A stretch of 63,341 nucleotides of DNA, counting the filler, from Folioceros fuciformis (taxonomy: Eukaryota), in NCBI GenBank assembly GCA_049999805.1. It is 14 parts of 14 records of this genome, joined end to end, with 100 filler letters (N's around TTAATTAATTAA, not from the genome) between each part and the next. Parts side by side here need not be neighbours in the genome. Positions count along the whole stretch, not along the records: positions 38,964 to 45,337 come from JBNGIO010002722.1; 13 more parts are not named here. The stretch is one strand, 5' to 3'. Positions 13,754 to 63,341 of the stretch are shown here, piece after piece. Both the position numbers and the translations under genes were made by a program. The notes beneath the pieces were generated by a model. It had not been told where the DNA came from. It did no database searches and saw only the letters and a program-made list of their open reading frames with translations. Position 1 is the stretch's first letter, and every line of letters begins with the position of its first letter.

Positions 13754-15751
13754 NCAGCAATACTGTCCACCTCTCGTGACTTCTCATCCCCTATGCAAGA
13801 AGGCTCTCCCAAAGTCGTTCACCCTGACCCCCTAGAGTTCGGGGTTTGTGAGGCTGCTGGCATCCCCCCAGAGGCAACCACACCCCACTCATCCCCCTCT
13901 CGTGCTCTGCTGCCTTAGTTTGAGGCCGTGCCAGGCGACCAGGTTGGGGCCCTGGAATCCTCCCAGCATCCAACCCCCGTGGCCACGGGCCCATAGTCCT
14001 CCTTACAACCCCCTACCGACCAGCACCTCGCCATCCTCTCCTTGTCCATGGTTCCTAGCCGGCTTTCAGTCTTGACCGAGAATGACCCGAAGTCTTGGAG
14101 CTCCACCTTGAAGACAGTCCTCTCTCAGGGCACTAGCGCGGGGAACAAAAAGCCGAAGAGAAGAGCGGGCAAAGCCCCGTCCTCAACATCTCGTCGACGC
14201 AGTCCCAGACTAGCAGCTGCACCATATCCCATAGCGATAGGTGACTCCCACCCGGAGGGTGGACGGAAGCAGGAACAATCTCAACACCCCAAGGAGACCA
14301 GGGCAGACTCTGTATCCCTGTATGGGGTCCTAGGCACTATTACGTGTGAAGCGGTGCCCTCAGTGGCTACAGTTAACACTCAATCCGTCGAGATGTCGGA
14401 CGTCGTTCCATCGACGGATGACGGGTTTCCGTTCCCAGACATTCTCCCTTTGGCCTCTGCTTCACGATTCCGTGCATGATCAAGGTTTTCAGGGTAGAAG
14501 GCGAGCAAGCTGAGGCCTTGTGGCAACTAGAAGACTGTGTAATCCGATTCCTAGAGGTGGCCACAGACTCGAGGAAGACAGCGGTGGACGCTGTGACTAC
14601 AATCCTATGGGAGGGAGGTGCTCTTGGGAGGGATGACTTGCTCCTCTTCCTGCCAGAGTCCAAAGCCGTCTCCCCAGCCCACTCTACACCGATTACACTG
14701 CAAGGAGGGACCAGGGGAGTCCCGCTACGACAAGACTGGGTATGGCTTGCATCGGAGGTGTTTAGCATCGAGAGGCCCAAACTCCCCAACCCTGTGACAG
14801 TTCCAGAGCCCAACAGATAGGTTGAAGTCTCACTTGACGACTGCTTGGCTCCCGTGACGGCTATGGCCGACAAACACCAACTGATCTAATGTCGTTCACA
14901 CCACCAAGGCATGTCACAGGCCAACAACTGCAAGTAATCTCCTGGAATGTGAGAGAATTGTCGCGTTGGTCCAAGACATACTCTAAGTGGAGAGCCCTAT
15001 CGGTGTATGCCCAATCGTGGATTGATTGGGATATCTTCTGTGTCCAGGAGCATAAGCTAGATGCAAGAAAGGTGCAGGACCGTGCGCTAAAACGGCTGTA
15101 CTTCCAGGGGTAGACCTTCTGGGCCCCTACCCAAGGATCCAAAGGAGGGCTGGCAATCACAATCTAGTCACTACAGGATAAAATGCGAGAGCATGGCACG
15201 GACTCGGATATCTGCTTCCAATGGGTGTCACTGCACCTCTCGTGCGGGGTGGTTAGGGTGTGCAACGTTTATGCCCCTACGACACCTTGCCTCCGAGCTA
15301 CGACATGGAGAAGGATGAAGGACCGTCTTGACCCTGCTATTAGCTGGCTGGTGGTAGGGGATTTTAATTTTGTGGAGAGCCCTGAGGATCGCAGGGGTGG
15401 CAGCTCAGCGGGATAACTTCACACATGCAGAAGATGGACTAAACTCAAGGACTTGCACCTAAATGTGGAGGATCCTTGGAGAACTACTCCGGCTCTGCGA
15501 CACCCAGGCTCTCTTGCGTTTAGCTGGTCAAACCAACAGAGCAGCCCCATCCAGAGGAGACTAGACTGTATCTATATCCAGTCCTCTATTTGCCTGTGTG
15601 CAAACCTTTGCCATCACTCCTGGTACCATGCTATTAGATCATGCCCCGGTCCTGCTGTGCTTCTACTGTTCGGAATCAGGTAACAGCCCTACTGGCTTTG
15701 CAGGAAAGTTCGTTAGGATGAATACCTCTTTGCTCAAACATGGGGGTGTAA
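13754..15751 (+). mobile_element. L1-like LINE fragment: ORF1 remnants plus apurinic endonuclease (14925-15660), interrupted by an LTR-A insertion
   Basis: VISWNVRE, DIFCVQEHKL, GGLAI, CNVYAP, LVVGDFN, FSWSN..RRLDCIYI, LDHAPV, then RMNTSLL just before the LTR junction. The ORF1 assignment is positional only. Confidence 0.88.
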
Positions 15752-16149
15752 TGTGGAGGCAAAACCCCGGGCACTGATTGCCAACGGGTTCCACCTTTAG
15801 TGGCCACACTTATCCCACTATCGTTTAGATATTGGGTTTCCTTCCCACGAAGGAGCGATGGGGTTCCTTGCTGCTGTGGATGGAGGGTCGGACTTGATCG
15901 ACTCGATGATGGATTCGAGGGCTCCCCTCCAGCTCCGATCAGGCGTAGGACTGGCCTCGCTGTCCAGCGGTCAGCTGCACCTCTCTCGGTGCCCACACAC
16001 TCACTCCAGTCACTACAACGACCCTAACCTCTTAGATTTGCGGCTTCCCTCACTCACTTCACTCACTCTCTCACTCCAGCACCAACACCAGCAACTAACA
16101 ATGACACCACTACCTTCTACACTCCCCTACTGACTCCTCCTACCCGGCA
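15752..16149 (-). mobile_element. LTR family A, inverted, inserted in the LINE
   Basis: Starts TGTGGAGGCAAAACCCCGGG and is the reverse complement of 34230-34633. Confidence 0.88.
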
Positions 16150-16249: not shown

Positions 16250-19200
16250 GGGGAGTGCAGGCCCACCTGCCGCGGGCCGCCAGGCCCTACCCGCCAACCC
16301 CCAAGGGCGCCCGGCCAGTGGCACCCCCGGGGCCAGAGGGCGCTACAGGCGTCTAACGTCGGCGCCAGGGCGCGGCTACCCTGTCGGCGCCGCGACCTGC
16401 CCAGCCTACGAGCGCCGGCTCGGATGCAAGTGCCAACACGTTGCAGGCGTGTGAGTGTCGGTCGCAGTCACCGGACAGCGTCGCGAGCATCGCAGTTACC
16501 AGAGCGCCGACGCCGAGAGCAAGAGTGCGGGCACAGAAACGATCCCAGCTGCGGAAGTGGGGATCTCGATCGGACGATGGGAGATATTCTAGTTGTGAGC
16601 GACCGAAGCCTAAATCGTGGACAACCGTTTTGTTCTGAGGGTAACGTTTTACATTTCGACCGCTTTCTAACTAGCCTTTTGGTTGATTTGCATCGATTTT
16701 GAAACATGACCTCCTCAGAAAACGTCATGTTCAATATCGAGAAGTTAGCTGGTACTAACTTCCTGTCCTGGAAAGAACAAGTATATAATGTTCTCGTACA
16801 AAAGAAGCAGATCAAGCCTATCAAGTTGCTAGGAGTGAAACTCGTTGGCATGACTCAGGATGAGTGGCAGGATCTAGATGAGCTTGCTAGGTCTACCATC
16901 ATGCTAACATTGTCGAAGTTGGTCTACGTCAACGTGAAAGACAAGACCACAAGTTACGAGCTATGGCAGAAGTTGTGTGACCTATATGAGAAGCAAAGTG
17001 CGGCTTCTCAGGTGTACTGGTTGAAACAGCTGGTGGACTTGAAGATGAAGGAAGGGACGAGGATGTCCGATCATCTGAACGAGTTCAATACCATTTTCAG
17101 CCAGCTCTCATCTCAAGGTATCTCGTTCCCAAATTCCATGAGAGCTATGTTTCTGTTGGTCACGTTACCAGAGAGTTGGGACACTTTTCATACAGCTCTG
17201 AGTAATTCCACTCCTGCTAGTGGTCTTACTGTTGTAAATGTAGAAGGTAGCCTGTTAACATAGGAGGTGAACATAAAGAATATGGAACCTTCGAAAGGTT
17301 CCAATACCCTCATGGTGAGAGGAAGGTCCACTTCAAAGGGGAAGTACAAGGAGCGAAGTCTTTCCCGTAGTAAGTCTCGTAGTCATAACAATGTTGAGTG
17401 TTACCATTGTCACAAGAAGAGTCACATCAGAAGGGACTGCAAGAAGTTCAAGAAGGACAAAGGAAAGGAGAAGAAGCAGAGCGACAACAAGGCAAGTCCG
17501 AGTGTCAAGCGTGACGAAGTGAACTCTATTGATGATGGAGATGTTCTTACCTCTTCTTCCTTCGATTCTGCACAACTGTCAGCCGTGGAGAGTCACTTAT
17601 TCTCTAATTGGATAATTGACTCTAGAGCATTTTTCCATATCACTCCGCATAGGGAGTGGTTTAGCACTTATGATGCTATTAGGAAAGGATGTGTTCGGCT
17701 TGGAAATACCTACGCATGCGAGATTGCAGGCCAATTTGGTGACGTGCAGCTGAAGTTCGTCCATGGATCTTCATTCGTACTAAAGGATGTTAGGCATGTT
17801 CCAAAGTTGACCAAAAGCATGATTAGTGCAGGGCAGTTGGATGATGCTGGCTATCATTGTTGGTTTGGAGATCGTTCTTGGAAGATCTCCAAAGGTTCTC
17901 TTGTGTTAGCTCGTGGATCGAAGTGTGGCACTTTGTACTCACTTCATGTGACCACTGTCAAGGATCATGTGATTTGTGTAACGGAACAGCCAAATGTTTC
18001 CTTATGGCATAGTCGGTTAGGACATATGTCTTAAAAAGGAATGAAGATCTTATCTTGTTTTGGTTACGTCCCTGCTTTTGACTTCTCCGATTTCTCCATG
18101 TGTGAGCACTGTTTGTATGGGAAACAGACGAAGTCACCACATGGAGCAAGAGGTAAACACAAAAGTAAACCTCTTGAGTTGGTTCACAGTGACGTTTGTG
18201 GATATATGCCCACGGTATTGTTAGGTGGTGCATCTTATTTTGTCACTTTCATAGATGATTTCTCACGCAAGGTGTGGGTTTATCCTTTGAGGAAAAAGGA
18301 TGATGTTCTGACAGTGTTTCAAAAATTCGTCACCCTTGTGGAGAATCAGTCTCGCCTCCGACTGAAGTGTCTAAGGACAGACAATGGGGGAGAGTATGTT
18401 TCGAAGGCTTTCCAGTCATTCTGTGATTCCAAGGGAATCAAGAGAGAATTGACTACGCCGTATACTCATCCCCAGAATGGTGTGGCTGAATGGATGAACA
18501 GGACCATCCAGGAGAGGATGCGTAGTTTGTTGTCAAACTTTGGATTGCCTAACGGATATTGGGCAGAAGCAGTGGTTACTGCGGTGCATCTTATTAATAG
18601 ATCTTCTAATAGGGCTGTGGATGAACAGGTTCCAGAGGAGATGTGGTCTGGAAAGAAGCGGTCATACAAGCATCTACGAGTGTTTGGCTGCGAGGCATAC
18701 TACCATGTTCCGAAGGAGTTTCAGGACAAGTTGGCACCCAAGTCCAAGAAATGTATTTTTCTTGGCTATGGTGAATCTGGTGAGATGGGATACTGTCTAT
18801 GGGATCCAGAGGCCAAGAAAATGGTTCGCAGCAATGACGTGTTCTTCAATGAGGCCAAGATGCATAAGAAGCCTACTCCAACTGTGGAGGTGCGACGGGT
18901 GGTCTTCCAAGAAGATGGACTTACCGTCCCGCGCTGGTTGGACGTCATGATGTGCAGGAACCAGTTCCTCCACTTGTAGAAGAGGAGAGAGTGCAACTAG
19001 CTGCAATAGAGGCACCAGTGCTTCGTAGGTTACGAGAGATTTCACGTCCTCCTGACATGTATGTTGCTTCTCTTGATTATGTCATTCTGACGGATTGTGG
19101 GGAGCCCTCTTGTTATCAAGAGGCCATGTCAGTGACTGACAAGGACAAGTGGCAGAAGGCGATGTAGTCGCAAATGGATTCGCTCCACAAGAACCAAACT

Positions 19201-20242
19201 TGGGAGTTGGTTCGGTTGCCTAGGGGCAAGAAGGCGTTGCCATGCAAATGGGTGTATAAGATGAAGGGCATACCCCATTATGGCAAACCCAAGTACAAGG
19301 CACGATTGGTTGCTAAGGGTTTTAAGCAACAGCAAGGTATTGACTTTGATGAGATTTTCTCACCAATTGTCAAAATGACCAACTTGCGATGTGTTCTTGA
19401 TCTAGTTGCGAGGCACGACATGGAACTTGTCCAGATGGATGTGAAGTCGGCATTTCTGCATGGTGATCTCAAGGAAGAGGTATACATGCAGCAACCAGAG
19501 GGTTTCATTGAGAAAGGCAAAGAGAATATAGTGTGCAGGTTAAAGAAGAGCCTTTATGGTTTGAAGCAGGCACCCAGGCAGTGGTGTTTCAAGTTCCACT
19601 CATTTATGCTTTCTCAAGGCTACAAGTATAGTGATGAGGATCATTGCCTCTATACGAAGCAAGCTAAGGATGGAAGCTTGCTCATTCTGGTCCTCTATGT
19701 GGATGACATGCTAATTGCTGGGACTAACAGTGATGAGATTTCAGCGTTGAAGTCAAAGCTGAATGCTCGCTTTGACATGATAGACTTGGGAGAGGCAAGC
19801 CATATTCTTGGCATGCGTATTCGTCGAGACAGACAGAAGCATTTGCTTTACTTGTCTTAGACTGAATGGATTAACAAGGTGCTTCAACGTTTCAATATGG
19901 AAAAGGGGAAGGTATTGAGTACTCCGTTGCCTCCATATGTGAAACTGTCAAGCAAGGATTGCCCAAGTTCTGCGGAGGATAAAGCTCAAATGGAAAAGGA
20001 TCCATACTCATCAGCTGTAGGGAGTTTGATGTATGCAATGATTGCTACAGATCCTGACATTGCTTTTGCAGTGGGAGTGGTTAGCAGGTGTATGTCAAAC
20101 CCTGGCAGGAAGCATTGGGAGGCAGTGAAAGGAGTTATGAGGTACTTAAATGGTACGAAAGCTTTGTGCTTATGTTTTAGTAGTGAAGATGCCTCTGTCG
20201 TAGGATATACGGATGCTGATTATGCAGGGGATATGGACAAAA
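16250..20242 (+). mobile_element. gag-pol: Ty1/copia (Tnt1/Tork-like) internal region; gag-pol pseudogene from 16706
   Basis: IEKLAGTNF..WK gag start, CYHCHKKSHIRRDC knuckle, WIIDSRAFFH protease, LWHSRLGHMS, LVHSDVCG and RTDNGGEY integrase, YKARLVAKGF, QMDVKSAFLHG and LYVDDMLI RT, GYTDADYAGD. In-frame stops at 17261, 18032, 19165 and 19858, and a frameshift near 18950. Confidence 0.97.
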
Positions 20243-24570: not shown

Positions 24571-24656
24571 ACCCAATGTCTCAACGACAGTGGGATAAGT
24601 GTGGCCACTAAAGCTGGGACCCGTCGGCAATCAGTGCCCGGGGTTTTGCCTCCACA
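24571..24656 (+). mobile_element. LTR family A terminus
   Basis: Matches the end of 1900-2028 and finishes TCCACA. Truncates the accessory ORF next to it. Confidence 0.85.
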
Positions 24657-26200
24657 CTTACCTTGTAAATCCTTTGCAAGGTAGACTTGTTCTCGTAGCT
24701 GTTCCTACACCACCTTCCTAGTTTCCTCAGACTGGGCGAGGTCCTTTCGACATGCCATGATCTCATGTGATAAACCATGTTGGGAAGTCTGCAACGTGGT
24801 CACCTGTTGGGTCAACTTCTCCAGTTCTTGCCTTTGCTCACCATTCTTGAGGAGATACTGTCCTTGCTCCTTCTCCAATTCTTGCACTTTGGCTTCTAGT
24901 CGTGTCTGGTCTGCATCTCGACTTATGTCCTCCTGTAGTAGGGCTGCAATCATCACACAGGCCTCTGTCCACACAGGCCTTTGTCCAATTGATGTTTTGT
25001 AGTTGTTGGCCACATCGAATGATGTTGAACCACACTCCCAATGAAGTGTCGTCACCTTGGCTTGTGGCTTGTGGCGTGTGCTCCCCGGGCTGCCTCCCAA
25101 TTCACTGGGCTCCTTCTCCCCAGATTTGGTGCTCCACTCTATGCTTGCATTACTGGTGTCATCGCCAAATCCCCTCCCTAGTACCTTACTTCAACTATTT
25201 GTTGGCTTGGTCTAGGATCCCTCTCTGTCTCCATCTCAGTTGGGGTGGAATCTAGGGCTATTGGGGTGGTGCCTTCGGTCCCTTTGCTACTCCCTAGGTC
25301 TCCGTATCAACGGGGTTTCATCTTCATCAGATTCATCATAGGCTGCCATGGCTAATTTGGAATCAAGTGGGGACTCCTCATCCGTAAGAGGGGTCGACAC
25401 TCCACTAGAGATGAAAGCCTCCCCTTGCAACGGAACTATAAAAGGTTGTTCCGCCTCCTCCAACTCTTCTAGTGTTAACAACCCTTCTGTCTTCCATAAG
25501 TGCACCAAATAAGTCGAGAGGTAGTAGGGACGTGCACTCCTCCCCTCCCTTTCGTTTAGCTTGAGAAACTTCTCCCTGTGGTAGGTATACGCCTCATACA
25601 TAATTAACCCCAGTCTAGCTTTGCTCCTTGAGTCACTCTCCAAAGGAAGTGGAGGAAAGCATTGCTGAAATATGAGGTGCGTTGATAGTTCACTAATCCA
25701 AGAACCACCTTTGTGAACAACCGCCATTTGAGCTCCTTGATCCTCTCAGTCCTCCACCCGTTCTTGGTTCTTGCTAGCACCCCTCCCAACAACAATTCTA
25801 GTGCTCCAGATGGTAGGGTGGTGTTGGGTGACCTGCGCCCATTTATGGTTTTATCTAGGATCCCAATACCAATGCTCTCCTCTTCCGACCTACTGTACAC
25901 CTGTTTGATGCTCCAGACAGTCCAACACTGAGGGTCAGTCCTCACGTTTTGTTTAGGTAGGGCTTCCAACTCCTCCTTCGATTGTTGTAGGTTGGTATAG
26001 CACTCCTTCACCAAGCCTTCATGAACATACGACCAGTGTCTGCCATATATCCAGTCAAGATGGATGTTTGCGTCACATGCCCAACTCTGTAGGTCTATCA
26101 AATCCCTTGAGTTCAGCTAGCCCCTACTAGGCACCCGCTCACATGTATCATGCCCACATCAATCCCATAGCCGTTGTAGGCTTCCCCATAATCGCTCCCC
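24657..26200 (-). pseudogene. Gypsy accessory ORF homolog (divergent subfamily) with a C-terminal coiled coil
   Basis: WSYVHEGLVKEC..VRTDPQCWTVWSIKQVYSR..KNGWR..GAKLDWG..YLSTYLVHLW aligns with 61013-61738 and 48897-50399. Heptad-like tail at 24705-24970. Confidence 0.75.
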
Positions 26201-32488: not shown

Positions 32489-32995
32489 CTATCTACTAGC
32501 AATAACAATGTCCACTGAACTAGATGTGGTTGGCACATATGCTTCGGTTATGTGAAGAACCTTTCTGTCTAGAGGACAAGTCATTGATATGGACAACCAT
32601 TCATCTATGCATTCTCGATGAAAACAATGAGAACAGTTTGGCAATTTCCTAACCTCTTGCCCGTCCTCCATCACAAGTAGACACATAGAACATTCTTCGT
32701 CACTATTGGCCTGCTTCTCATACAATGTGATTGGAATAATATGCTCCAACGTGTCCACATCTAATTGTTGATACATAGGTTGGGCGTCTTGAGCTTGTTG
32801 TTGAACTATTTGATTATACATGTTTGTTGTTGAATCACTATTATTTGCAATGAATGGAGATGAGAGTGAAGTCCTCATACGATGTACAATATAATAGGCT
32901 AATGTAAATAGGATAACCAACACAATTAGGATAATCCCCTCAATTATCGCAGTTCTATGCACCCCTGAGGCAGGACTTGTATTAATAGAATCCAT
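32489..32995 (-). CDS. ATL-family transmembrane RING-H2 E3 ubiquitin ligase (168 aa, intronless)
   Basis: ATG at 32995. Hydrophobic segment IIEGIILIVLVILFTLAYYIV, GLD-like QLDVDTLEHIIP, RING-H2 CSMC..LPNCSHCFHRECIDEWL...TCPLDR. ORF uninterrupted. Confidence 0.88.
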   Translation of the reverse strand: MDSINTSPASGVHRTAIIEGIILIVLVILFTLAYYIVHRMRTSLSSPFIANNSDSTTNMYNQIVQQQAQDAQPMYQQLDVDTLEHIIPITLYEKQANSDEECSMCLLVMEDGQEVRKLPNCSHCFHRECIDEWLSISMTCPLDRKVLHITEAYVPTTSSSVDIVIASR

Positions 32996-33367
32996 TATAT
33001 AAATCAGTTGTAGGAGATAAGTTATCTCTAGACTACTCAATTTATGTTCTTGAAAATGATCACTAGGTCCCAGAAGGTGGATGTGTTAAACAAGGAAAAT
33101 AATATGTAGTTGTTATGTATATATATTTGATAATTGACAAACATATATAGAACATGGAACATGCAAGTATTGAAATCAAGTATATTTTATAGTTTTTATA
33201 ATAATTTAAGCCCATGCATATGTAGATATCGAGGATGAATTGAACTTATATATAATTATCTATTACATAAACTAGTAGTCTTGATATTATATGAACTAGT
33301 AGTCTTGACATTAATGAAATAGTAGTCTTAATAATAAGATTACTAACCGTTGAGGAGTACACGATTC

Positions 33368-33696: not shown

Positions 33697-34633
33697 TGAA
33701 GTCAGAGAGAGAGAGAGGCTCCTATAAGATCAGGTGAGCCTGTAGGAGGAGGGAGTCATTCACTTTGGGAGTCAGTCTATCTCTTTGTGAGCTCTTGGAG
33801 GTCCTCTCTTCATGAGCTCTTGTGGTCTGTCCCTGCTTGGTTTTAGGACCTGCAGTGTGTTGCCGGCTGTGCAACGTCTGGTAGGATCGCAAGCCGTGTG
33901 TTGCCGGCTGTACAGTGTCTGGTAGGATCGCAGGCAGCGTGTTGCCGGCTGTACAGTGTCTGGTAGGATCGCGGGCGGCGTGTTGCCGGTTGTATAGTGT
34001 CTGGTAGGATCACAAGGTGTAATGACCAGGGTGTAGGGGCTTGCCCCTAGCTCTTGATTGTAAAGGGTGTGTCTTTCTCTCAACCTGTCCACTCTTGTTC
34101 CTTGCTTGGTCAAGTGTTGTAGGCCGGCCATGTCTCATGGTGTCTGGTAAGGTTGTGGGGAGGAGATACCCAAGAGGGGAGTGTGTTCCCTTCGTCCTTT
34201 TGTTTGGAGTTAGTCTAGTGACTCTTGCCGGGTAGGAGGAGTTAGTAGGGAAGTGTACAAGGTAGTGGTAACGTTGCTGGTTGCTGGTAGTTGCTGGTGT
34301 TGGTGCTGGAGTGAGAGAGTGAGTGAAGTGTGTGAGTGAAGTCGCAGATTTGAGAGGTTAGAGTCGTTGTAGTGACTGGAGTGAGTTTGTGGGCACCTAG
34401 AGAGGTGCAGCTAACCGCCGGACAGCGAGGCCTGTCCTACGCCTAATCGGAGCTGGAGGGGAGCCCTCGAATCCATCATCAAGTCGATCAAGTCCGACCC
34501 TCCATCCACAGCAGCAAGGAACCCCATCGCTCCTTCGTGGGAACGAAACCCAATGTCTCAACGACAGTGGGATAAGTGTGGCCACTAAAGGTGGAACCCG
34601 TCGGCAATCAGTGCCCGGGGTTTTGCCTCCACA
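33697..34633 (+). mobile_element. LTR family A (longest piece), inserted into the DNMT domain of a gypsy element
   Basis: TATA-like CCTATAAGA at 33721, internal 41-bp repeats, and terminus TCCACA at 34633 abutting DNMT codons. Confidence 0.85.
33855..34018 (+). repeat. 41-bp tandem repeat x4 inside LTR-A
   Basis: Unit approximately GYGTGTTGCCGGCTGTACAGTGTCTGGTAGGATCGCAGGCN at 33855, 33896, 33937 and 33978. Confidence 0.95.
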
Positions 34634-35084
34634 CCTGTTGCACATGTGGACGTGAGTCTAGCTGAGCAGCTGTGTTTTCGAAGAGATAAGCACATCGTGG
34701 GTTATCTTGCTGAGCCCATACGAGCAACTGGTGTAAGTCCCGAAAGAGGCCTGAACATGCATCTTCTAAGCCTTGGCCACGGCCTACCCTAGAAAACCCC
34801 TAGCATTCCCAACTAGCGATGACCATGTCCACAGGTCCCAAAGCATGGATGTGGGCCTGTTGGATGTACTGCACATCCTGTGGCCAGGCCGTAAAAACGC
34901 TATGAGTGGCCTCTGGGGGTAGTTGCTGTGGAAAGAGCTGTTGCAGCCCCAGCAGTCTAAAGGCTGCAATGTTCCTAGCTATTGGGTCCTTGTCACAATA
35001 GACATAGCGCAGGATAGTGAGCCCCGTCAACAGCAAAGCCTCCAGCCCGGTGCAAATACCCCCAAACAGCTCTACCACTGTTAG
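34634..35084 (-). pseudogene. C5-cytosine DNA methyltransferase domain (DNMT3-like), motifs I-VI
   Basis: LTVVELFGGICTGLEAL (I), YCDKD (II), QDV (III), DMVIASWEC*GFSRVG..GL.D..SGLF (IV/V), YLFENT (VI). Cut off by LTR-A at 34633. Confidence 0.88.
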
Positions 35085-38000
35085 TTCAGGCTGAGAGGGT
35101 GCCCACGTGATCACAGTGCAGTTCAGCAGGTTGTCCTGTGTGGGATGCGCCAACCCTGTAGCCACAAGGCTCTGGACACGTTGCAATTAAGCCTTGGCAT
35201 TCTGCAAACGTGCAGCCACCTCAGCAGGGTAGTCTGGATGAGCCATGGGTTGAGACAAATTGCTGCCACTGGCAGGTGAGTCCTCATCAGCTGCAGACTC
35301 CAGCTGCCGTTCTACATGGGCAGTGTCCCTCACTAACTCACCCAGGTTGCAAGACTGAATGTCACAAACCATTTGGCAGGCTACAAGCAAGGCCACAACA
35401 GCAACTGTTTTATCATGAAGGTCCACACGGAGCCCCCCCTATCTCCAATAAGGCCTGTAAAAGGCCTGTTCCGTCCAGTTGTCCACGCCAATGCCAGGTG
35501 GGTACAAAAATTCTTGACCCAACAAGACATCATACTTGGTGGTTGTGGTCACAAGACAGGGCAATGACAAGGTCATCTCATCTGGCGTGCCCGGGTTAAG
35601 GGTAATATCCACCGGTTGGATGGTTTCCCCACACACTAGCTCAACTGCCCCGGAAGCAGTTCTGATGTTCCAAGGTGATGTGCAAAGAGCATCACCCTTC
35701 AGATGCAGCCTGGCTGCCAGCACCTTGCCAATTATGACTGGCTGTGCACCTGTGTCAAGCAGCACCACCATGGGTGCATAACCATTCACTGTCACGTGCC
35801 CTGCTCGATTATCAACAATAGTGTTGCTTACCCGAGTGTTGAGCCTGTTGGTGGGCTATACTCGTGGTCTGGTACCAACTTCGCCTGCCACCTGTACACT
35901 GCAGACTCCTTCCAGCAAGCCGGAATGCATTCGTGGCTGCTCCATGGGCTAAAGGCAACTGTCACAGCGTGATGAACTGTCTGGTGGGAGTTCCCACAAT
36001 CGGGCTCATTGCATGTGGCCACAACTTCTAGTGTCTGCATCATTTGCTGTAGCCAGCTGGGTGTAAGTCCAAGCTCCTAGAGAGTGAAGAGGGGGATCTC
36101 CGTGAGCCTCTTAGCCACCTGTTTAGCAGTGACAGCCTGTGGAAGCAAGTACAATTTTTCCGCACGTGATATGCCCTGCCCCCTTTGAGGGGCTGATCCA
36201 CTTGGCTCTGACCTAGATGAAGAATGGCTCTGCCCCCTGATCAAAATGGCAGAACCTGGCGGCAATGGCACATAGGATTGAGGCATCACTGCCCTCACCC
36301 CTCGTTGCCTAGTGATAGGTCCAGTAGCCACTGATGTAATGTCCAGCGTGGTATTTGGGAGCACATGCCCCACCCAGTTGGTTGGCATCACAACACGTCC
36401 CTCTTGGCTGTCACTTGGTGCCTTATCCGCTGTGCAGACCTGATGTGGTAGGCCGTAGTCCTCTCCTTCAGGTACTGCAACAAGTTCTACTGCTATAGCC
36501 GGTTTGGCTCCTCCAACACAAGAGAGATTGGCCACCTGCATAGCCAATGCTGCCAGTTGTGCCTCCAAAGTTGCGACCTTCTCAGCATTGGCAGTATTCT
36601 TGGCCTTGGCCTTGTCACATTGCTGTTTGCTCCGTGAAGGCGCTGCTATTCCAGCTGCAGTAGCTGTAGGTGCCACTGCTGTCCTCCAGCCTCAGCCTTT
36701 GCCTTCTGATACCATCTCTATGGATGTTTGTAGAAGCAAACCGTGACAACATGGCCGTTATTCTAGCAGTGAGTGCAGAACAAACCCTCCGATGGACACT
36801 TGTATGCAGTGGACAAGTGCTCTGGATTGCCACAGTAATTGCATAAGGCTGCTGCAGGTGCTGCTGCTGCTGTAGTAGCTGCTGCCCCTGCCTTGGCTGG
36901 CTTAGCTGGCCTTGCCCTTAAGGAAGCTCCCCCATGTGTGGTTGACCCCTTGTTGGTGAACATGGATTGGTAGTGATGGAAGGACTTGGCATGCTTGGAG
37001 GAGAACACCGAGTAGGCGATCTCCTTCTTCTCCGCCTCTTCATGCACTGGCTCCAAGGTGTACTTATCATCATATTTGTCGACCAAGGAGGACACAAGCT
37101 GGAAGTGAAAAAGAGAATCACCCTCCAGGGCAACTAAGAACTTCTCCGCTGCCTCCTGATTCGTCAACATGCCAATACCCTCACGTAGCTTTTGCAGCCT
37201 ACGGAAGCACATCTGGACTGTCTCCCCTTTCTTCCTCGCAAAAGTAGCCAACTCAGTGATTTTCTCCGGAGTTTTGAGGGGAAAGGCCTTTTCCAAAATC
37301 CTTAGAAACTCCTCCACGAGGTTGGCATGCTTGGGAGTCTGGATGAACTCATCAATCCCCTGCGTTGCTGTTGTCCTCTCCGCTGGGGTGAGGGGGCTCA
37401 CCACTGTAGGAGGCTGCACGGTGGCAGCAACAATGCCATTAGCAATGGCCTGTTGATGAGCTGTAATGGCGGCCTACAACTTGGCATTATAGGCTAGCTG
37501 CAGCGCCCCCTGGTGCAAAGGGTTCAAGGTATGCACCGTGGCAGTCAAATCTGCTTGGTGAGCCTCGTACAAATCCAATGCCTCATCAGCCATGTAGGCA
37601 GACAACTGTTCGAATATGTATAGGTGATTGTACAACGCAGCGTGCTTGAACTTCACCCGGCTGATTGCCTCACTCACACGTAGGCGGAAATCTCTCAACG
37701 ACATAGTCCTAGGCCTGCCTGAGAATTTTTCGTGCCTACTTGATGGTACTGACTCCATGGTATCAGATCCCTCCGAGAGGTCAGCTTTAGTCTGTCCTCC
37801 TTGTGCTATTGAAATCACCAATGAATGGTCAGCACCCTGGCCTCCACTATCCTGCCTCAAGTCACCAAAATCTTTTGCAACTGGATCGGGGGCCCGGTTA
37901 GCAAAAGGGGACCAACTTGTGCCTGCAGCAGGTTGTAGCTGCTCAGCACCAGGATCTGCTCCTGCTGGGTCTCCTCCTAGAGACAGCCGTTGCCGTTGCC

Positions 38001-38863
38001 GTTGTGCTGGCCGCCTCCTCCTTGCAAAGACCCAGGGTTCGTAAACCCTAAACCCTAAACCCAGGGTTGGCACGTCCCTTGTCCTCAGTCCATAGCGTGG
38101 ACTACCTCCCTCCTCGTTAGAGGGCATTGCCCATGTAGATAGCACGCCAGAGATCAGCCACCAGCAAGGTAAGCAAGTGCTGCAAGGCAGCCTCCGAGAA
38201 AGGAAAAAACCCAAGCCACAGAATGAATGTGAAACGCAAAATTCTTGAACACACCAACGCTGCAACTCTGATCCTTCTCCTCAGTAAGCAAAAGGGACCT
38301 GGAATATCACTATCCTAGCACCTATGCTGCAACAAGGGAAGTGATGGTTGCAAATAGCCAATTTCCCCAACTGAACCCTAAGTGCCCAACCTCTCTAAGG
38401 CATTCAGTCCTTGGATTGCACTTGGAAGTAGACAAAAATGGTACCAACAGATTTGTCTCAACAAGGCAAACACTTTGGTATGAAAATTGGCGGCAACCAA
38501 CCTATGGGGCGATCACTATGAACGCTGGAAGACTTGGGCAGCTTGCTGCAAATGAAATGCAGCTGCTTCTGCGGCACAATCAGGGCGTGTGGGGGATGCT
38601 GCCTTGCTAGAGTTGCACGGCCGCCTCCACCAGCTCACTCACCCTTGGATAAATGACCTCCAGACACTAAGCAAACTCGGCAGAGACCTCACTCACATAC
38701 GAGGACTCAAAAATTCTGGCTGAGGGACTCACTCACACGTGAGCTCCAGCAATTGAAAGCAATTGTCGAAGTAGACATGCCAGCAGCGCTCACGTGTGTT
38801 GTGGCGCACTTCGGTGCAAATACGAATCAAAAGGGCTGCCCTCCACGGGCTGCCTGGAGTTGG
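34634..38863 (-). mobile_element. DNMT-carrying Ty3/gypsy retrotransposon, copy 1 (leader, gag from ATG 38127, Zn knuckles, protease, DNMT N-half)
   Basis: gag RHEKFSGRP..LRDF..RVKFKH, CNYCGNPEH/CTHC*NNGH..C, and protease VLLDTGAQPVIIG in frame with the DNMT. Collinear with copy 2, including the non-coding leader (38270-38640 vs 40080-40440). Confidence 0.9.
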
Positions 38864-39699
38864 NNNNNNNNNNNNNNNNNNNNNNNNNNNNNNNNNNNNN
38901 NNNNNNNTTAATTAATTAANNNNNNNNNNNNNNNNNNNNNNNNNNNNNNNNNNNNNNNNNNNNGCCTCCTATGTGTAATAAACTAGCTCAAATTTGGTTT
39001 TGAAGCATTTAATCCTAAGGATTATTTTTAAAAAAATTTAAATTTATGTATATCATATAACAATAATTTTAAACCTTGTTTCTAGTATGTCATGTATTAG
39101 CTATCTCAGATGTCATATGATAGCAACTTTGAGTCAAACCCCACTGCAACATTTACTTAAATTTGTTCAGGAGGATGAGAACCTAAATTGGCCAAAGGCC
39201 GATAAGGGCCCAAGTTGTTCTTTCTGTTGGGAAGATTGTCTTTCAAGTTTTACTAACTATTAAGGTCCTATTTGTATTTTACTTGTTATCAGATATTTTA
39301 GAGGTCCTTAATTTTTTCAACATTAATTTTCAACGTGATTATCTTGAGTGAGTGAGCATACCTCTTTTCATAGATTCTCTTCTTTGAACAAGTGAAAAAG
39401 ATGTATAAAGTTGATAAGGTAAGTATAGGGAGTAGAAAACTTTTGTCATGAAGGTGTCCGCCGATTAGGTAAGAAACCCTCATCCAATGTTGTTTAGAAT
39501 AGAATAGCACACATATGTCTTAAGTAAACCAATGCTAGGATAAAAATGAACCTAGCTTAGCTAGATATTTTGCAAACTAGCTTAGAAATAGCTAGATGTT
39601 TCTAGGCAAGTTGAGTCGGAACACATGTTGGGTATTTCCCACCATGTTGGTGTAACCTTGCTGCCCAACATGGGAAAAAAAGCAAAACTTAGGGTACAG

Positions 39700-42600
39700 T
39701 AGCAAGGCATCATGGAAGGAGCAGCGCTAATGCAAGAGCGTGAAGCCAACTCAGCTGGACGCTATATCGTGAAGATGGCTGGTGCTAGGCAAAAGGGGCA
39801 GCCAAGGCAGAAGTTGGTAGTTGTTCAAGTTGTACCGAGCAGCGTTATAACTTGGGGAAGGCAGCTCAAACCTTATTTTTGTGTTCTCTGGAATTGAGAG
39901 CTAGGATGAAGAACGTTTTCAGTGCCTTTGATTCTTGTGTTGCAGTTCATGGCATAACTTACTGACTCACCAAGCTGCGTGTGTCACGCAACTCCTTTCA
40001 AACCCAGATTGCTGCAAGTCTTCGCTGCAATCTCTTCACTTCAACAACTTTTTCAATTTGGAACAAGCATGCAAGATGTGGGAGCAAATGAGCTGGGTGG
40101 AGGCGGCCACGCAACTATAGCAAGGCAGCATCGCCCACTCGCCCTAATCGTGCTAGCAGCAGTTCAACTCCAGCAAGCTTTCCCAAACCTTCCAGAGTTC
40201 ATAGCGTCCGTTACATAGATTGGTTGCTTTTAACTCACATACCAGATTCTTTGCCTCACTGAGACAAATCCATTGGTATGATTTTTGTTCAATTCAAAGT
40301 GAAATCTAGGGACTTAATGCCTTGGAGGAGTTGGTCACCTAAGGTTTCAATTGGGGAATGTTGGCTATTTGCAGCCAACACTCCTCTTGTTGTAGCATAC
40401 GGGCTAGGGCTCTTGTGGACATTTCAGGTCTTTCATTACATATAGCTTAGCTTTTAAACCAGCTCCCTACAAGTCTCTTTTTGCAGCTGTGACTTTGGCA
40501 TTTCACAGTTCTGGACTAGTTTGGTTTTCTAGCTTTAGCAGCAAGCTTGACTACAGTACTGGCTTGCCTTCTTTTCCTCTTCCAGCCTAGCTAGCTAACT
40601 TGTTGTTTGCTGTGCATGTTCATGGGGGAATGCAACCTAAGGAGCATGGGACCAGTCCTCGTTATAGACTGAGATCTCGTGACATCCTTGGACAAAGCAC
40701 CCCACCTAGACGTGCATACACACAACAGAGGAGGCAGCCAAGAGGCAAGAGCAAGCTCAGGAGTTTGTGGAAGTCAGCTTTAACCCCGACACTGCACCTT
40801 CAACAGCAAGGCCAGCAACCAGCTGGTCCCCATTTACAAGTTTCCTCATCTCTGAGCCTTCAACTTTGGAGGGAGAGCAGGCTCCATTTTAGAGCCAGCT
40901 ACCTGAGGAGGAGACATAGGGAGAGTTCTTGCTATAGCAGTCCTTGGGCCATACACCCTTGGAGCAGCCCCCCTTGCCAACTTGGGGTGGGCAGCCTTCA
41001 GTTCACTCAGGCCTTAGATTTCCTCATCCAGGACAACCATACATCAGCTAGTCACGTGTTGAGTATTCTGAAGACTCAGACGACATGGAGGGGGGAGCAA
41101 CTTACAGGCATGAGAGACTTTCAGGGAGGCCAAGTACACAGCCCCTACGGGACTTCAAGTTGTTTGTCAATGGCATGATCAGTCGGGTCAAGTTTAAACA
41201 TGGTGCTGCGTACAGCCACCTCTACATGTTTGAACAATTGGTTGGGTATCTAGCAAACGAGGCCCTAGACTTGTATGAGGTGCACCAAGCTGAGCTCACA
41301 GCAACGGTGGCTACACCTAACCCCTTGTTCTAGAATGCCTTGCAGCTGGCTTACAATGCTAAGCTAGCTAATGCAATTAATGCTCACCAGGCTGGTATTG
41401 CTGTTGGGAGCATTGCAGCCACAATGCAACCACCAACAGTGGTCAGCCTAACAACAGCAGAAATGATTGCAGCTACTGCAAGTGTGGATGCTGACATCCT
41501 CACACCCAAGCATGCTAACCCAGTGGAAGACATTTTGGGGATTTTGGAAAAGGCTTTTCCCCTCAAGACACCTGAGAAGATTGCAGAGTTGGCAAGTTTT
41601 GCGCACAAGAAAGAAATAACTGTTCAGATGACCTTCCGTCGACTACAAAAATTGCGAGAGGGTACAGGAATGCTAACAGACTAGGAGGCAGCACAAAAAT
41701 TCCTCACAGCTCTAGAAGGTGATCCACTTTTCCACTTGTAGCTCGTCACATCCCTTGTGGATAAGTATGGAGACAGTTATACTTTGGAGCAGGTGCATGA
41801 GGAGGCGGAGAAGAAGGAGATTGCATTCTCAGCATATGCCTCAAGGCATTCCAAGGCCTTCACGCATTATCAAACCATGTTCTCTAGAAAGAACATAGCT
41901 GCTGGGGCATCCTAGTCTACTTAAGCCAAGCCAGCCAAAGCAGGAGCTGCAGCAACCTTGGAGGCTTTGTGCAATCGCTGTGGCAGTCTAGAGCACATGG
42001 CTCCGGCCTGCAAGTGCCCTCCTAAAGGATTGCTTTGTTCTCATTGCCACAAGCCTGGACATCTTGTGACTGTATGCTTCCAGAAGCATCCGAAGCGAAG
42101 GCAACAGCGAGGGGGCACCACAAATGTTGCAGGGACAGCTCCCACTTCCACTGATTCAAGCCCTTTGGCTACAGGCAATTTAGGAGTCTCATGCAGCAAA
42201 CAGCAGCGAGAGAAGGCCAAGGCCAAGGTGGCTACTAATGCAGACAAGCTCACTTCACTGGAAGCAACCGTGGCTGCTCTTGCCACATAGGTGGGGGCAC
42301 TCTCAACTAGTATCTCTAGCAGCGTAGCTACTTCCAAGCCAGCTGGGACAGCCAGATTGGTGGCATCACCAATAGAGGATGATGAGGGCTATGGGCTACC
42401 GCATGAGGCCTGGAATGAGGCCCAGCGCTTGGAATATGCGCCGTTGTTTTCAGTTCAAGACATGGGCATCAATCCTGGGCAGTTGAGCTAGGCCTTGAGG
42501 AGTGGAGAATCAATAGCATTTGTCACAATGACAACTGGAACATCTGATAGTGAACTGGCTGTAGGTTTGCCAACAACCTCAGCCACATACATGTCATTTT

Positions 42601-45337
42601 CAGCAGTGGACAAGGCTCCACAATGGGACATGGGATCTATGCTAGGGGTATACACCTCTCAACGTGCCACGTCCATGCCAAGTTGCCCTTGTGTGCAGCC
42701 TACCAACCGCATGAAGGTGCGTGTCGACAATACCATGGTGGATAACCGAGAGGGGCATGTCACTGTCAACGGATATGCACCAAAGATGGTCCTTTTGGAT
42801 ATTGGGCGCAACCCATCATCATCTGCAAGGCTGCGACTAGGTGGAGATGCTCTCAAAGCATCACCGTGGAACATCAGGACAACATTTGGGTCAATTGAGC
42901 CTGTTTGTGGAGAGACTGTACAGCCAGTTACCATAACGTTGAAGCCCGGCACAGCCCCCTCCATGGCGCTTGCCTTGCATTGTCTAGTGACCACGGCCAC
43001 AAATTATGATGTGCTTCTTGGGCAGGAGTTCCTCTTTCCTCTAGGCATAGGCGCGGACAACTGGTCCGAGCTCGCCTACTAGAGGCCTGATTGGAGGAAC
43101 GGAGGTCAGCAGGTGGCCTACTTGCCTCTTGATCTCCATGGAGCCAGTAAGGTGGACACTGCCACGTTGATTGCTCCACTGGTGCTTGCATGCATCTTGA
43201 TTCTTGACACCAGGCAGGTAGACACTTGGCTGGATACCAATCTTGATGACGAGGATGGAATGATGGACCAGTCAAGATAGTCATTAGTAGCAACCTCATG
43301 CTTGAGGGATGTGTTGTTGAAAAATGACACGGGTGACCCATCTGTAGACGTTTTGCATGTGGCCACCCCACATGTGCAATTGGCCCTTTAAAGGATGTAG
43401 CCACCTCCTGCACCAGATGAGCAACCAACGCTCAGCGATGTCAATCAGCCCATCATAGCATGGACACCCTCTGCACCTAGCTTAACAGTTCTGGAACTGT
43501 TTGGGGGCCTATGCACTGGATTGGAAGCCATGCTGCAGAATGGGCTGGTTGTGGCCCAATACATTTATTGTGACAAGTGTCCCATAGCCAGGAAGCTAGC
43601 TGCCTTTTGAAATCAGGGACTTCAATCCCAATTTCCAGCATAGCTGCCACTCATTGCCATGGCTGCCATGTTTATAGCCCTTCCACAGGATGTCCAGTAC
43701 ATCCAGGTTGGGCACATTCAGCGCCTACCACCCATAGACATCGTAGTGGTTGGTTGGGAATGCCAAGGGTTTTCCTCAGCTGGCACTGGAGCAAGTTTGT
43801 AAGATACATGCTCTGCTCTTTTCTGGGATATGTGACGCATCTTTGTGTGGATTCAGGCCCGCAACCCTACCTGTGCTTACATTTTGGAGAACACTCCAGC
43901 CCAGCTGGATTCTCGACTACAGGTTCGACAGGACATGGCTGTGATCCAGCAGCATGTGGGAGTTCCTTTGTTACTTGATGTTGTACAGGTGGGCAGTTAC
44001 GCACATCGCTTGCATAATTTTTGGACCAACCTTGCGCCCCAACCCTTGTTAGAATTGGTGTTGGCTGGTACCACTCGAGACCCATCCTTGAGCCTGGTCA
44101 CAGTCCTCGACAGCAATCACCAGCCTCAGCCTGTCCGTGCTGCAAAGAGGAAGCCTTGGTACAACACCAATGTCCCAAAACAGCCACGCAGTACCCTTCC
44201 TACGTTGGTGAGCTATCCCAGCTCTCATGCATATAGAGGGCAGGGAGCTGGCATGTTGTTGAACACTGACACACAGCAGTGGGAGGAACCCAATGTGGAC
44301 GAACGGGAGCGAGTGATGGGTTTTCACACCCATTCTACAGCAGCACTGCAAGTCAAAGTTCAGCAGTGGTGCTCAGCCTTGGGCTGTGCTATGGAACTTC
44401 ACGCAGTGACATGGCTGGTCAGCATCTGCCTGGCATTTCAACTTATGTCTCGTACAGGTCCTCGCCAGGTCCCCCATTTCTCCCACACTTGTGCTGCAGA
44501 TGTTGTTCATCTCCCATTCCCTAGCTACACTACATGGTCATACTAGCTTGATGCTGGGGGGGGGAACATCTGGCCTGGGCTAAGAAGCCTGTTTTTTCAG
44601 CCTCAAGTCCAGGGGGGGACTGTGCATGGATTGCTGGAGCTGAGCACAAGCCACGTCCTTCCGCTGAGAACTTTCTCTGGACAATGGAACCCAAGCTCAC
44701 AAGCAAGCAGTAGGCTCAGGTTTGCAGTTTGTTGCTGAAATACAAGGATTGTTTCGCCTTCTCCATGAAGGAATTGAAACTTTGCAATGTGACTGTCTTC
44801 CGCATCAAGTTGACCAGTGATGAGCCCATCTATAGGCGATGTTACAGGCTCAGCCAAATAGAGTGGGAGATGGTGGACGCACGATGCCAGGAATTGCTGG
44901 AGGCTGGGCTTATCCGTCTCTCATTGTGCCAAAGGGGGTTATGCCACATCCAGCCAAGGTGGGTATACATCCAAAGTTTCAGCCGAATTGCAAAGCCACT
45001 GAATGATCTACTGCGCAAGGATGTGCAATGGAGTTGGACAGCTGCTGCAAAGGAGGCTTTTGACATGCTCAAGGCTTAGCTAACCGCGGCTCCCGTGATG
45101 GCCAGACCTGATTTTTCCAAGGCCTTTGTGGTGCACACAAATTGGAGTGTGCTGGGTCTTGGGGCTGTCCTCGCACAGCTAGATGAAGAGGGACGCGAGC
45201 GCGTCATAGCTTACGCCTCTCGCAGTAATAACCGTGCGGAGGCCAACTACAGCAGTTACCATGGGGAATGCTTAGCGGCCGTGTGGGCTGTTTGCCATTT
45301 CCGCCCATATCTGTTTGGGAAGCCCTTTACATTGGTG
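39700..45337 (+). mobile_element. DNMT-carrying Ty3/gypsy retrotransposon, copy 2 (gag-PR-DNMT-partial RT-RNase H)
   Basis: gag (from 41085), knuckles, protease (VLLDIG..YDVLLGQEFL) and DNMT share one frame. RT start KYKDCFAFSMKEL..EPIYRR.YRLS follows, with the RT core deleted, then FSRIAKPLNDLLRK and RNase H VHTNWS..GAVLAQ..IAYASRSNN.AE.NYSSY.GECLAAVWAV.HFRPYL. Left boundary approximate. Confidence 0.92.
43482..44430 (+). pseudogene. Full-length C5-cytosine DNA methyltransferase domain (DNMT3-like) with 4 in-frame stops
   Basis: LTVLELFGGLCTGLEAM (I), IDIVVVGWECQGFSSAG (IV), ILENT (VI), SYAHRLHNFWTNL (VIII, compare DNMT3 AAHRARYFWGNL), ERERVMGF..HST (IX), ALGCAM (X). Stops at 43608, 43641, 43800 and 43833; no frameshift. 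Confidence 0.92.
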
Positions 45338-62120: not shown

Positions 62121-62627
62121 AGTGGTGCTACAGAAGAATACGCCTGTCAAGCATGAAGATGGCCATCTAGGAGGGGGAGGGGTGCCACCTCGACGCCATG
62201 CAGGCGCCATGTGAGAGCCACTTGGGCGCCACATCAGCGCCATACGGGCGCCACCTAGGCGCCACTTGGGCGCCATGCAGGCGCCACCTAGGCACCACTT
62301 GGACACCACCTAGGCGCCACCGGGCACCACGTTGGCGCCCGTGACGCGCGAAACGAGCGTGCCAATGAAGCGAGGACCCGATTGACAAGCGCCGGAAAGT
62401 GAACAAATCGCAGACGCCGGAAGCGAGAGTGTGGGCACCGTATTGACCCCGGCTGAGGAAGTCAGGATCTCGATTAGACGTAGGTGGACATTCCTGTCAT
62501 GAGCGACAAAGGCCCAAGTTGTGGACATACGATTCGGAAGAAGTTGTGAGGGTAACCTGTAGAATCTACATTTCATTTCGACCAATTTCAAACTAGCTTT
62601 TTGGTTGATTTGGATCGATTTTGAAGC

Positions 62628-63341
62628 ATGATGTCCTCAGAAAACGTCATGTTCAATATCGAGAAGTTAGATGGTACTAACTTCCCGTTCTGGAAAGAAC
62701 AAGTGTATAATGTTCTAGTACAGAAGAAGCAGATCAAGCCCATCAAGTTGCTAGGAGTGAAACCTGTTAGCTTGACTCAGGATGAGTGGCAGGATCTAGA
62801 TGAGCTTGCTATGTCTACCATCATGCTAACAGTGTCGAAGTCGGTCTACTTCAACGTGAAAGACAAGACCACAAGTTTCGAGCTATGGCAGAAGCTGTGT
62901 GACTTGTATGAGAAGCAAAGTGCGGCTTCTCAGGTGTATTGGTTGAAACAGCTGGTGGACTTGAAGATGAAGGAAGGGACGAGGATGTCCGATCATCTGA
63001 ATGAGTTCAATACCATTTTCAGCCAGCTCTCATCTCAAGGTATCTCATTCCCAGATTCCGTGAGAGCTATGTTTCTGTTGGTCACATTACCAGAGAGTTG
63101 GGACACCTTCCGTACGGCTCTGAGTAATTCCGCTCCTGCCAGTGGTCTTACCGTTATAAATGTAGAAGGTAGCCTGTTAACAGAGGAGGTGAACAGGAAG
63201 AATAAGGAACCTTCGAAAGGTTCTAATGCCCTCATGATGAGAGGAAGGTCCACTTCAAAGGGGAAGTATTAGGAGCGAAGTTCTTCCCGTAGCAAATCTC
63301 GTAGTCGTAACAATGTTGAGTGTTACCATTGTCACAAGAAG
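62628..63341 (+). pseudogene. gag: Ty1/copia gag, same family as 16706-17420; stop at 63270; runs off the window end
   Basis: MSSENVMFNIEKLDGTNF..., nearly identical to the contig-5 element. Confidence 0.95.

Follow-up and report, generated by a model that had tools for sequence, protein, structure and literature searches.

Results

Copy 1 carries a methyltransferase domain between protease and reverse transcriptase

The window analysed here, 63,341 bases from an assembly labelled Folioceros fuciformis (GCA_049999805.1), is made of 14 contigs whose joints read 44 N + TTAATTAATTAA + 44 N. Two of these contigs hold remnants of Ty3/gypsy retrotransposons with a DNMT3-type C5 cytosine methyltransferase (DNMT) domain in the polyprotein: copy 1 on contig 38964-45337 and copy 2 on the adjoining contig 33697-38863 (Table 1). 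Positions 39444-45337 (+) very probably cover two-thirds, from the 5′ end, of a Gypsy-DNMT3 element that died long ago, with 38637-34635 (-) a second, deeply diverged member of that lineage.

Gag, its zinc knuckles, the protease (PR) and the DNMT domain of copy 1 lie in one frame, and reverse transcriptase (RT) and RNase H (RH) follow downstream in another. The PR...RT-RH order of a Ty3/gypsy pol is visible up to the contig end. The whole is collinear with residues 1-1453 of P0027, a protein of the leafy liverwort Calypogeia fissa, and gag aligns to residues 1-439 of that protein at 36% identity (tblastn, E 5e-61). The zf-CCHC match of copy 1 scores 18 bits, under the Pfam cut-off of 20.8, and a Pfam scan of copy 1 returned no protease match; the protease of copy 2 matches PF13975 (33.7 bits, cut-off 28.2). 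Beyond the DNMT domain, the RT connection and RH match PF17919 (108 bits) and PF17917 (79 bits) and are 61% identical to residues 993-1122 of pol from L002, a near-intact related locus. The match to L002 pol stops at residue 798 and restarts at residue 993, a loss of 194 residues that includes FGLKNAP and YIDD. Contigs from X1 and X2, a pair of runs made from a single sample under the same organism label, carry on with RT sequence at 44923 and 44961, where copy 1 is deleted.

The methyltransferase frame is broken by stops, and its recognition depends on reading through them. The frame 43401-44546 (+) encodes 382 residues, with internal stops at 43608 (TGA), 43641 (TAG), 43800 (TAA) and 43833 (TGA) and a closing TAG. 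Taken separately, the eight stop-free open reading frame (ORF) pieces gave no PF00145 match in Pfam; the read-through translation, with stops as X, passes PF00145 at E 4.4e-6 (26.8 bits, cut-off 22). A sequence search of the PDB returned 43 distinct sequences at E≤10, the first 29 of which are DNMT3A, DNMT3B or DNMT3C (E 7.7e-6 to 6.7e-3). M.HhaI comes next at E 0.039, about 5000-fold weaker than the best DNMT3. These results bear out the original prediction of a DNMT3-like domain between the protease and RT of a Ty3/gypsy element, in the frame of gag and protease with RT and RH downstream. They include the PF00145 check that it had proposed, and its interval and motif list proved right, running from motif I to the domain end.

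Aligned to DNMT3A, the domain has motifs I to VIII in linear order, followed by an ERERV block, and is not rearranged like plant DRM. Translation and family alignment give motif I as LELFGG, motif IV as GWECQGFS, with the catalytic cysteine retained, and motif VI as ILENT. Motif VIII reads AHRLHNFW, in which relatives have R where copy 1 has H, and the ERERVMGF block is followed by an X-like motif, LGCAM, with R instead of C in most relatives. The numbers assigned here (I, IV, VI, VIII and X) follow those in general use for C5 methyltransferases. Domain scans found no PWWP, ADD or DUF3444 host-type companion domain beside the methyltransferase; only transposon domains flank it. In a protein atlas, two of the top clusters for the C-terminal ORF of the domain have Chordata as the most frequent recorded phylum (recorded for 9/52 and 17/110 members), and one top cluster has PF00145 on 13% of its members; these matches gave no information on the host.

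Both window copies are decayed members of diverged sub-lineages

Copy 2 repeats the layout of copy 1 on the opposite strand, from leader to the N-terminal half of the DNMT domain, at 65-77% DNA identity. As originally predicted, it has the same PR-DNMT junction. Over 152 residues of the DNMT N-terminal half the copies share 58% protein identity; copy 2 has a stop within motif IV and breaks off after motif VI, where the terminus of another repeat adjoins. Non-synonymous and synonymous differences per site (pN and pS) are 0.18 and 0.79 in gag and 0.21 and 0.79 in the protease. Synonymous sites are thus saturated in both, and dN/dS was computed for neither; for the DNMT N-terminal half it is 0.18. 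Judged from this sequence divergence, the copies are two sub-lineages that separated with the DNMT under purifying selection, because pS is saturated while pN is low and the DNMT dN/dS is 0.18.

Between 41085 and 44546, copy 1 has 16 in-frame stops (11 TAG, 3 TAA and 2 TGA) and no frameshift or indel over the 3.4 kb from gag start to DNMT end. The observed/expected ratio is 0.33 for CpG, 1.33 for TpG and 1.55 for CpA, and most of the changes that set copy 1 apart from other copies in the runs are transitions. All this is in keeping with C-to-T deamination of methylated cytosines. Decay by point changes only, with TAG-rich stops, also suggests that C-to-T change affected CAG/CTG sites in addition to CG sites. 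Both window copies are non-functional relics, as had been claimed, copy 1 with its stops and deleted RT core.

Relatives supply the complete architecture

A word-index search of proteins returned 8 relatives of near equal length and 14 longer ones. The closest named relatives are two Calypogeia fissa proteins, CAM6101866.1 (P0027) and CAM6082409.1, both annotated as "unnamed protein product". P0027, from a chromosome-scale assembly, is an open 1549-residue frame with the order gag-PR-DNMT-RT and all motifs intact. The DNMT domain of copy 1 is 47% identical to that of P0027 and 35% identical to that of Klebsormidium nitens GAQ93235.1. A further protein, P0247, has a 2188-residue stop-free frame reading CCHC-PR-DNMT-RT-RH-INT, where INT is integrase.

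JGI metagenome contigs were scanned for relatives of another family protein, P0002, and 80 of 340 stretches were kept (L001-L080). The 340 stretches come from eight metagenome data sets, on contigs of up to 131 kb; they evidently stem from eukaryotic hosts and amount to hundreds of copies, most of them decayed. L002 reads PR-DNMT-RT-RNase H-integrase-PHD finger in a single frame. Rather than a plain pair of long terminal repeats (LTRs), related loci show an A...B-A-B arrangement, complete in 5 of 33 loci longer than 12 kb and with the 3′ B-A-B in 6 more. Besides L002, the complete A-coding-B-A-B set occurs in L013, L042, L044 and L061; it is DIRS-like, yet the elements have a DDE integrase and gypsy order. 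We take the full architecture from these relatives because the window is without the integrase-PHD part and the 3′ repeats, its copies ending before the latter.

One of 52 gapless metagenome DNMT regions is stop-free. Across these 52 copies the median pairwise dN/dS is 0.38 (1311 pairs), a value that blends selection acting on active lineages with the decay that follows insertion. The comparison of dN/dS among copies that had been proposed gave values below one at both depths, and they show past purifying selection on the DNMT, with the catalytic residues kept in open-frame relatives.

An AlphaFold model of P0002 has a mean pLDDT of 58; residues 91-260 reach 74-91, and the flanks and C-terminal half are poor. 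Its fold matches are, among the matches listed, all DNMT3A/B/C catalytic domains (best E 1.5e-16, about 20% identity, TM score 0.75-0.80 on target).

Table 1. Features of copies 1 and 2 and of the sequence beside them, in window positions; the last row describes the related locus L002.
Feature	Position	Strand	Basis or remark
Unrelated repeat adjoining copy 2 at the DNMT break	34226..34636	.	Matches on three other contigs
Copy 2: leader 38637-38314, gag 38127-36715, protease 35864-35443, DNMT N-terminal half 35111-34635	34635..38637	-	
Flank outside copy 1, low depth	38964..39443	.	Summed contig depth 2-11 over 38964-39389
5′ terminal repeat, starts TG, 3′ limit approximate	39444..40030	+	Depth peak
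Conserved non-coding leader block	40089..40408	+	Also in copy 2 at 38637-38314
Possible N-terminal gag extension, off the gag frame in copy 1	40630..41084	+	ORF 40591-41178 compared with copy 2
gag, two CCHC zinc knuckles (~41925-42290), 7 in-frame stops	41085..42410	+	tblastn
Aspartic protease	42693..43096	+	Aligned to protease of L002 pol and P0027
C5 cytosine methyltransferase domain of the DNMT3 type, broken by 4 in-frame stops	43482..44430	+	PF00145; frame 43401-44546
RT N-terminal part, catalytic core deleted at ~44936-44960	44651..44956	+	L002 pol residues 699-798
RT connection and RNase H, cut by contig end	44966..45337	+	PF17919, PF17917
L002 terminal repeats, A-coding-B-A-B	5897-6188, 14568-14752, 14745-15036, 15037-15221		PHD at 14366-14500

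Two domain orders divide one Gypsy-DNMT3 lineage

A profile search with the domain retrieved 558 representative proteins at E≤1e-30; the number rose to 2814 at E≤1e-10 and to 15,553 at E≤1e-3. Domain order was used to sort 161 proteins: in 104 the DNMT follows RNase H and precedes integrase (RH-DNMT-INT), in 14 it stands between protease and RT (PR-DNMT-RT), and 43 are DNMT-only fragments, leaving 118 with informative architecture. In a FastTree of 148 rows a single branch (SH-like support 96) keeps all 14 PR-DNMT-RT rows together on one side, and the same split by arrangement is supported at 100/98 in a 29-row IQ-TREE. The two orders are thus explained by a single change on the DNMT tree. That the PR-DNMT junction is a family trait, as had been predicted, is seen in copy 2, P0027, L002, P0247 and the 14 of the 118.

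Named members of the PR-DNMT-RT side are K. nitens GAQ93235.1, five Closterium proteins and Calypogeia. GAQ93235.1 reads CCHC-PR-DNMT, and its match to the copy 1 domain extends over 330 residues (E 3e-50). Copy 1 shares a group with the metagenome elements, one more protein and Calypogeia, apart from the Klebsormidium and Closterium clades; within the 29-row tree its lineage branches outside the Calypogeia and metagenome group. On the RH-DNMT-INT side one named member was found, the "pol" KAF8056149.1 (P0181) of the chlorophyte Scenedesmus sp. PABB004. In the accessible portions of the literature on Gypsy-DNMT3 we found no mention of this arrangement or of a chlorophyte host.

Identities between the two arrangements are 36-47% for RT-RH, 33-45% for INT, 35-47% for the PHD region and 34-41% for the DNMT. 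Because backbone and DNMT identities are similar, the DNMT module and its backbone appear to have diverged together, with a single relocation of the module. A PHD finger follows the integrase in both arrangements (L002, P0010, P0013, P0017 and P0181), at the position of the chromodomain of chromoviruses, and may be a histone-reading targeting module.

Comparison with described retrotransposon and host methyltransferases

KnitGypsy-Dnmt3 was described from the charophyte K. nitens with DIRS-like A-coding-B-A-B repeats; the K. nitens element DNMTs were placed within the DNMT3 clade by a tree, and a Ka/Ks below 0.2 was reported for the domain (de Mendoza et al. 2018, PMC5890265). We infer that GAQ93235.1 is one of the published copies, and the KnitGypsy-Dnmt3 domain order given here is the one read off that protein. 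The window element resembles KnitGypsy-Dnmt3 in its DNMT3-type domain within a gypsy-type polyprotein, in DNMT clade, in purifying selection on the DNMT and, through its relatives, in the A-coding-B-A-B repeats. It differs in that the DNMT domains are 35% identical, the window host appears to be a land plant, and the window copies are dead and truncated. The Calypogeia proteins have the same gag-PR-DNMT-RT order and the nearest DNMT among those named, but their DNMT frame is open where that of copy 1 is stop-ridden. Elements of the Scenedesmus type (KAF8056149.1) share a homologous DNMT, RT-RH, integrase and C-terminal PHD finger, whereas their DNMT sits between RNase H and integrase and on the other side of the 100/98 split.

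More distant is SymbioDIRS-Dnmt3 of Symbiodinium, which we compared by its description only: it too is a retrotransposon-borne DNMT3-type domain, but one acquired independently and carried on a DIRS backbone, which has a tyrosine recombinase (PMC5890265). Host DNMT3 enzymes (animal DNMT3A/B/C; plant enzymes with DUF3444, PMC6453930) share the catalytic fold, have their motifs in the same unpermuted order and show both the AHRxRxFW and the LGR signature. They differ by an identity of about 20%, and the window domain sits in a transposon polyprotein and has a longer stretch between motifs VIII and IX.

Published accounts place Gypsy-DNMT3 in Klebsormidium or, loosely, in "streptophytes" (PMC5890265, PMC12344493, PMC6453930, PMC10952607, PMC11982613; bioRxiv 10.64898/2026.05.21.726589; bioRxiv 10.1101/2021.11.30.470311). 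Full-text literature searches, beyond which figures and supplements may hold more, found no land-plant case. On the evidence of assembled sequence the family is resident in land plants, because relatives sit in the chromosome-scale assembly of the liverwort Calypogeia, and the earlier claim of a land-plant family is upheld to that extent. Its claim of novelty stands in part. The land-plant host range is new; a separate invention is refuted by GAQ93235.1. The novelty is one of host range, not of architecture, because GAQ93235.1 has the same order and falls in the same clade, and related loci have the same repeats.

Host of the window copies and alternative readings

Runs X1 and X2 contain 42-44% of the words of the stretch searched. 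In these runs 527 (X1) and 540 (X2) short contigs align to the contig of copy 1 at 90-100% identity, and the summed depth of run contigs is 33-453 within the element against 2-11 in the left flank. The family is therefore multi-copy in a sample with the same organism label, though depth does not fix which organism within the sample carries it.

Several observations weigh against our reading of the locus. Summed contig depth is not copy number, and other organisms in the runs could contribute to it. The DNMT3 assignment is one by similarity, suggested by the closest solved relatives, the motif order and the predicted P0002 fold. Where motif IV canonically has proline, copy 1 has glutamate, as do 11 of 16 other aligned sequences; 4 have proline. 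The grouping of copy 1 with the liverwort clade has support of 82/85 only, and both the integrase-PHD part and the 3′ repeats are missing from the window. As for function, no methylation could be detected in yeast with the KnitGypsy-Dnmt3 domain, a result its authors called inconclusive since human DNMT3B failed too (PMC5890265).

It is unlikely, though far from negligible, that the two DNMT contigs derive from another organism in the sample, such as an epiphytic alga or a bryophyte, and not from the labelled plant. The window consists of unlinked short contigs, with no rRNA, tRNA or other marker among them, and its fern-like signal comes from a Ty1/copia integrase on contig 16250-20242; neither DNA nor protein comparison found a repeat that this contig has in common with the DNMT contigs. 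The family is also abundant in algae and in bryophyte-like metagenome contigs. On the other hand, each of the two runs yields upwards of 500 contigs at 90-100% identity, a number unlikely for a trace contaminant, and the young repeat (91-98%) beside copy 2 recurs on three more of the window's contigs. In the tree the DNMT sits with the liverwort clade rather than with Klebsormidium or Closterium, which counters an algal source but not a bryophyte one. Whatever the host of the window, Calypogeia shows land-plant residence of the family.

Two other readings concern the origin of the arrangement. A land-plant gypsy lineage might have taken up a host DNMT3 independently of the algal elements, making a convergent new kind. 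Host DNMT3 genes, possible donors, are retained in non-flowering land plants (PMC6453930), and the K. nitens domain is just 35% identical. We nevertheless regard such a capture as very improbable: every PR-DNMT-RT element, whether algal or land-plant, has its DNMT in one clade at 100/98, with common junctions and lineage-specific motifs, the backbone has diverged about as much as the DNMT, and the A...B-A-B repeats agree with the published description (PMC5890265). There is hardly any chance that a host DNMT3 pseudogene came to lie amid unrelated retrotransposon fragments by nested insertion or misassembly, dense as the window is with nested, broken transposons. The same order and frame recur in copy 2 and in open frames of other organisms, no frameshift occurs from gag to the end of the DNMT, and the domain is without host-type companion domains. 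Descent of both window copies from one Gypsy-DNMT3 lineage remains the reading we prefer.

Proposed function and meaning

Plants silence transposons mainly through cytosine methylation, which makes it odd for a transposon to bring along a de novo methyltransferase. We infer methyltransferase activity, its substrate and a benefit to the element from the sequences as follows. Intact relatives encode one gag-pol frame, gag (two CCHC)-protease-DNMT3-type methyltransferase-RT-RNase H-integrase-PHD, within DIRS-like A...B-A-B repeats. As part of the polyprotein, the methyltransferase would sit in the particle with RT and integrase, where it may act on cytosines, probably CG, of new cDNA or of the surroundings of the integration site. 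Such methylation could make a new copy resemble resident DNA, or temper the element's own expression, and the PHD finger probably steers integration by reading histone H3 tails. In the available text of PMC5890265, de novo CG methylation in yeast is shown for the dinoflagellate SymbioDIRS-Dnmt3 alone.

As a tentative picture, in which we place less than even confidence, Gypsy-DNMT3-PHD would be an old green-plant lineage. Its PR-DNMT-RT branch, that of streptophytes, would have passed from charophytes to land plants and persisted in liverworts and at least one vascular plant (a fern), at tens to hundreds of copies and maybe with active members; the RH-DNMT-INT form is the one seen in the chlorophyte Scenedesmus. 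If this is true, a transposon-borne supply of de novo methyltransferase is present in non-seed land plants, perhaps counted or missed in "DNMT3" surveys. Caution is due, since transposon copies can enter the DNMT3 counts made for such plants. The gypsy version is in print solely from Klebsormidium, and an open liverwort frame and a multi-copy family in a probable fern move the question into land plants. There, methylation pathways (MET1, CMT, DNMT3 and DRM) are far better understood, and methylomes and transformation exist for some relatives.

The 5′ end of copy 1 and the rest of the window

Summed run-contig depth is 188-453 in bins 39390-40028 and then 64-101, and one 689-base run contig matches the flank 38964-39487 without any difference. 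Loose ends before 39444 are of discordant sequence (agreement 0.51-0.55), as expected for copies in different flanks. From these ends and the depth step, the 5′ end of the element is therefore placed at 39444/5, where the sequence reads TGTCATG. No second copy of the terminal repeat was found in the window because the contig stops before the 3′ end of the element. The leader block, at 77% identity over 328 bases, is the best-conserved DNA between copies 1 and 2. A primer-binding-site search of the leader showed a TGG-led conserved stretch near 40093 and matched no tRNA.

Upstream of the gag start, a stretch of about 150 residues in both copies (40630-41084; 38127-37744 (-)) aligns to Calypogeia. 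The copy 1 ORF 40591-41178 opens with a peptide resembling that of copy 2, in which it is fused to gag (268-residue ORF 38280-37477). Because the stretch is continuous with gag in copy 2, we propose that it may be a lineage-specific N-terminal gag extension.

The rest of the window is nearly all broken transposons, including Ty1/copia elements, and a DNMT-free gypsy element is present at 53145-51006 (-). The sole apparent non-transposon gene is a transmembrane RING-H2 (ATL-like) ORF at 32492-33085 (-), whose nearest protein-atlas clusters are Streptophyta. Rfam and tRNA scans of the whole window found no rRNA, tRNA or other host marker. One Ty1/copia family is seen at 16494-17419 and 62398-63341 (88% DNA identity), with an integrase part at 18035-18976. 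Among the matches listed for the integrase of contig 16250-20242, the best named ones are from the fern Adiantum nelumboides (11 of 120 rows, 47-67% identity); named seed plants reach 47-51%, and no bryophyte is among them. On this evidence the assembly most likely belongs to a fern or some other vascular plant without seeds, which is also the probable host of the two DNMT contigs. Searches by blastn (1e-10) and tblastx (1e-12) found no repeat linking the DNMT contigs to the copia contigs.

The repeat that adjoins copy 2, with its end at 34633-34636, matches 1900-2031 (98.5%), 15752-16149 (91%) and 24571-24657 (97.7%). Its young terminus (91-98% identity) is thus common to four contigs, and in two it lies at the very contig start. 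Downstream of broken copy 2, a 41-base tandem repeat occupies 33852-34016 in 4 copies with 88% matches.

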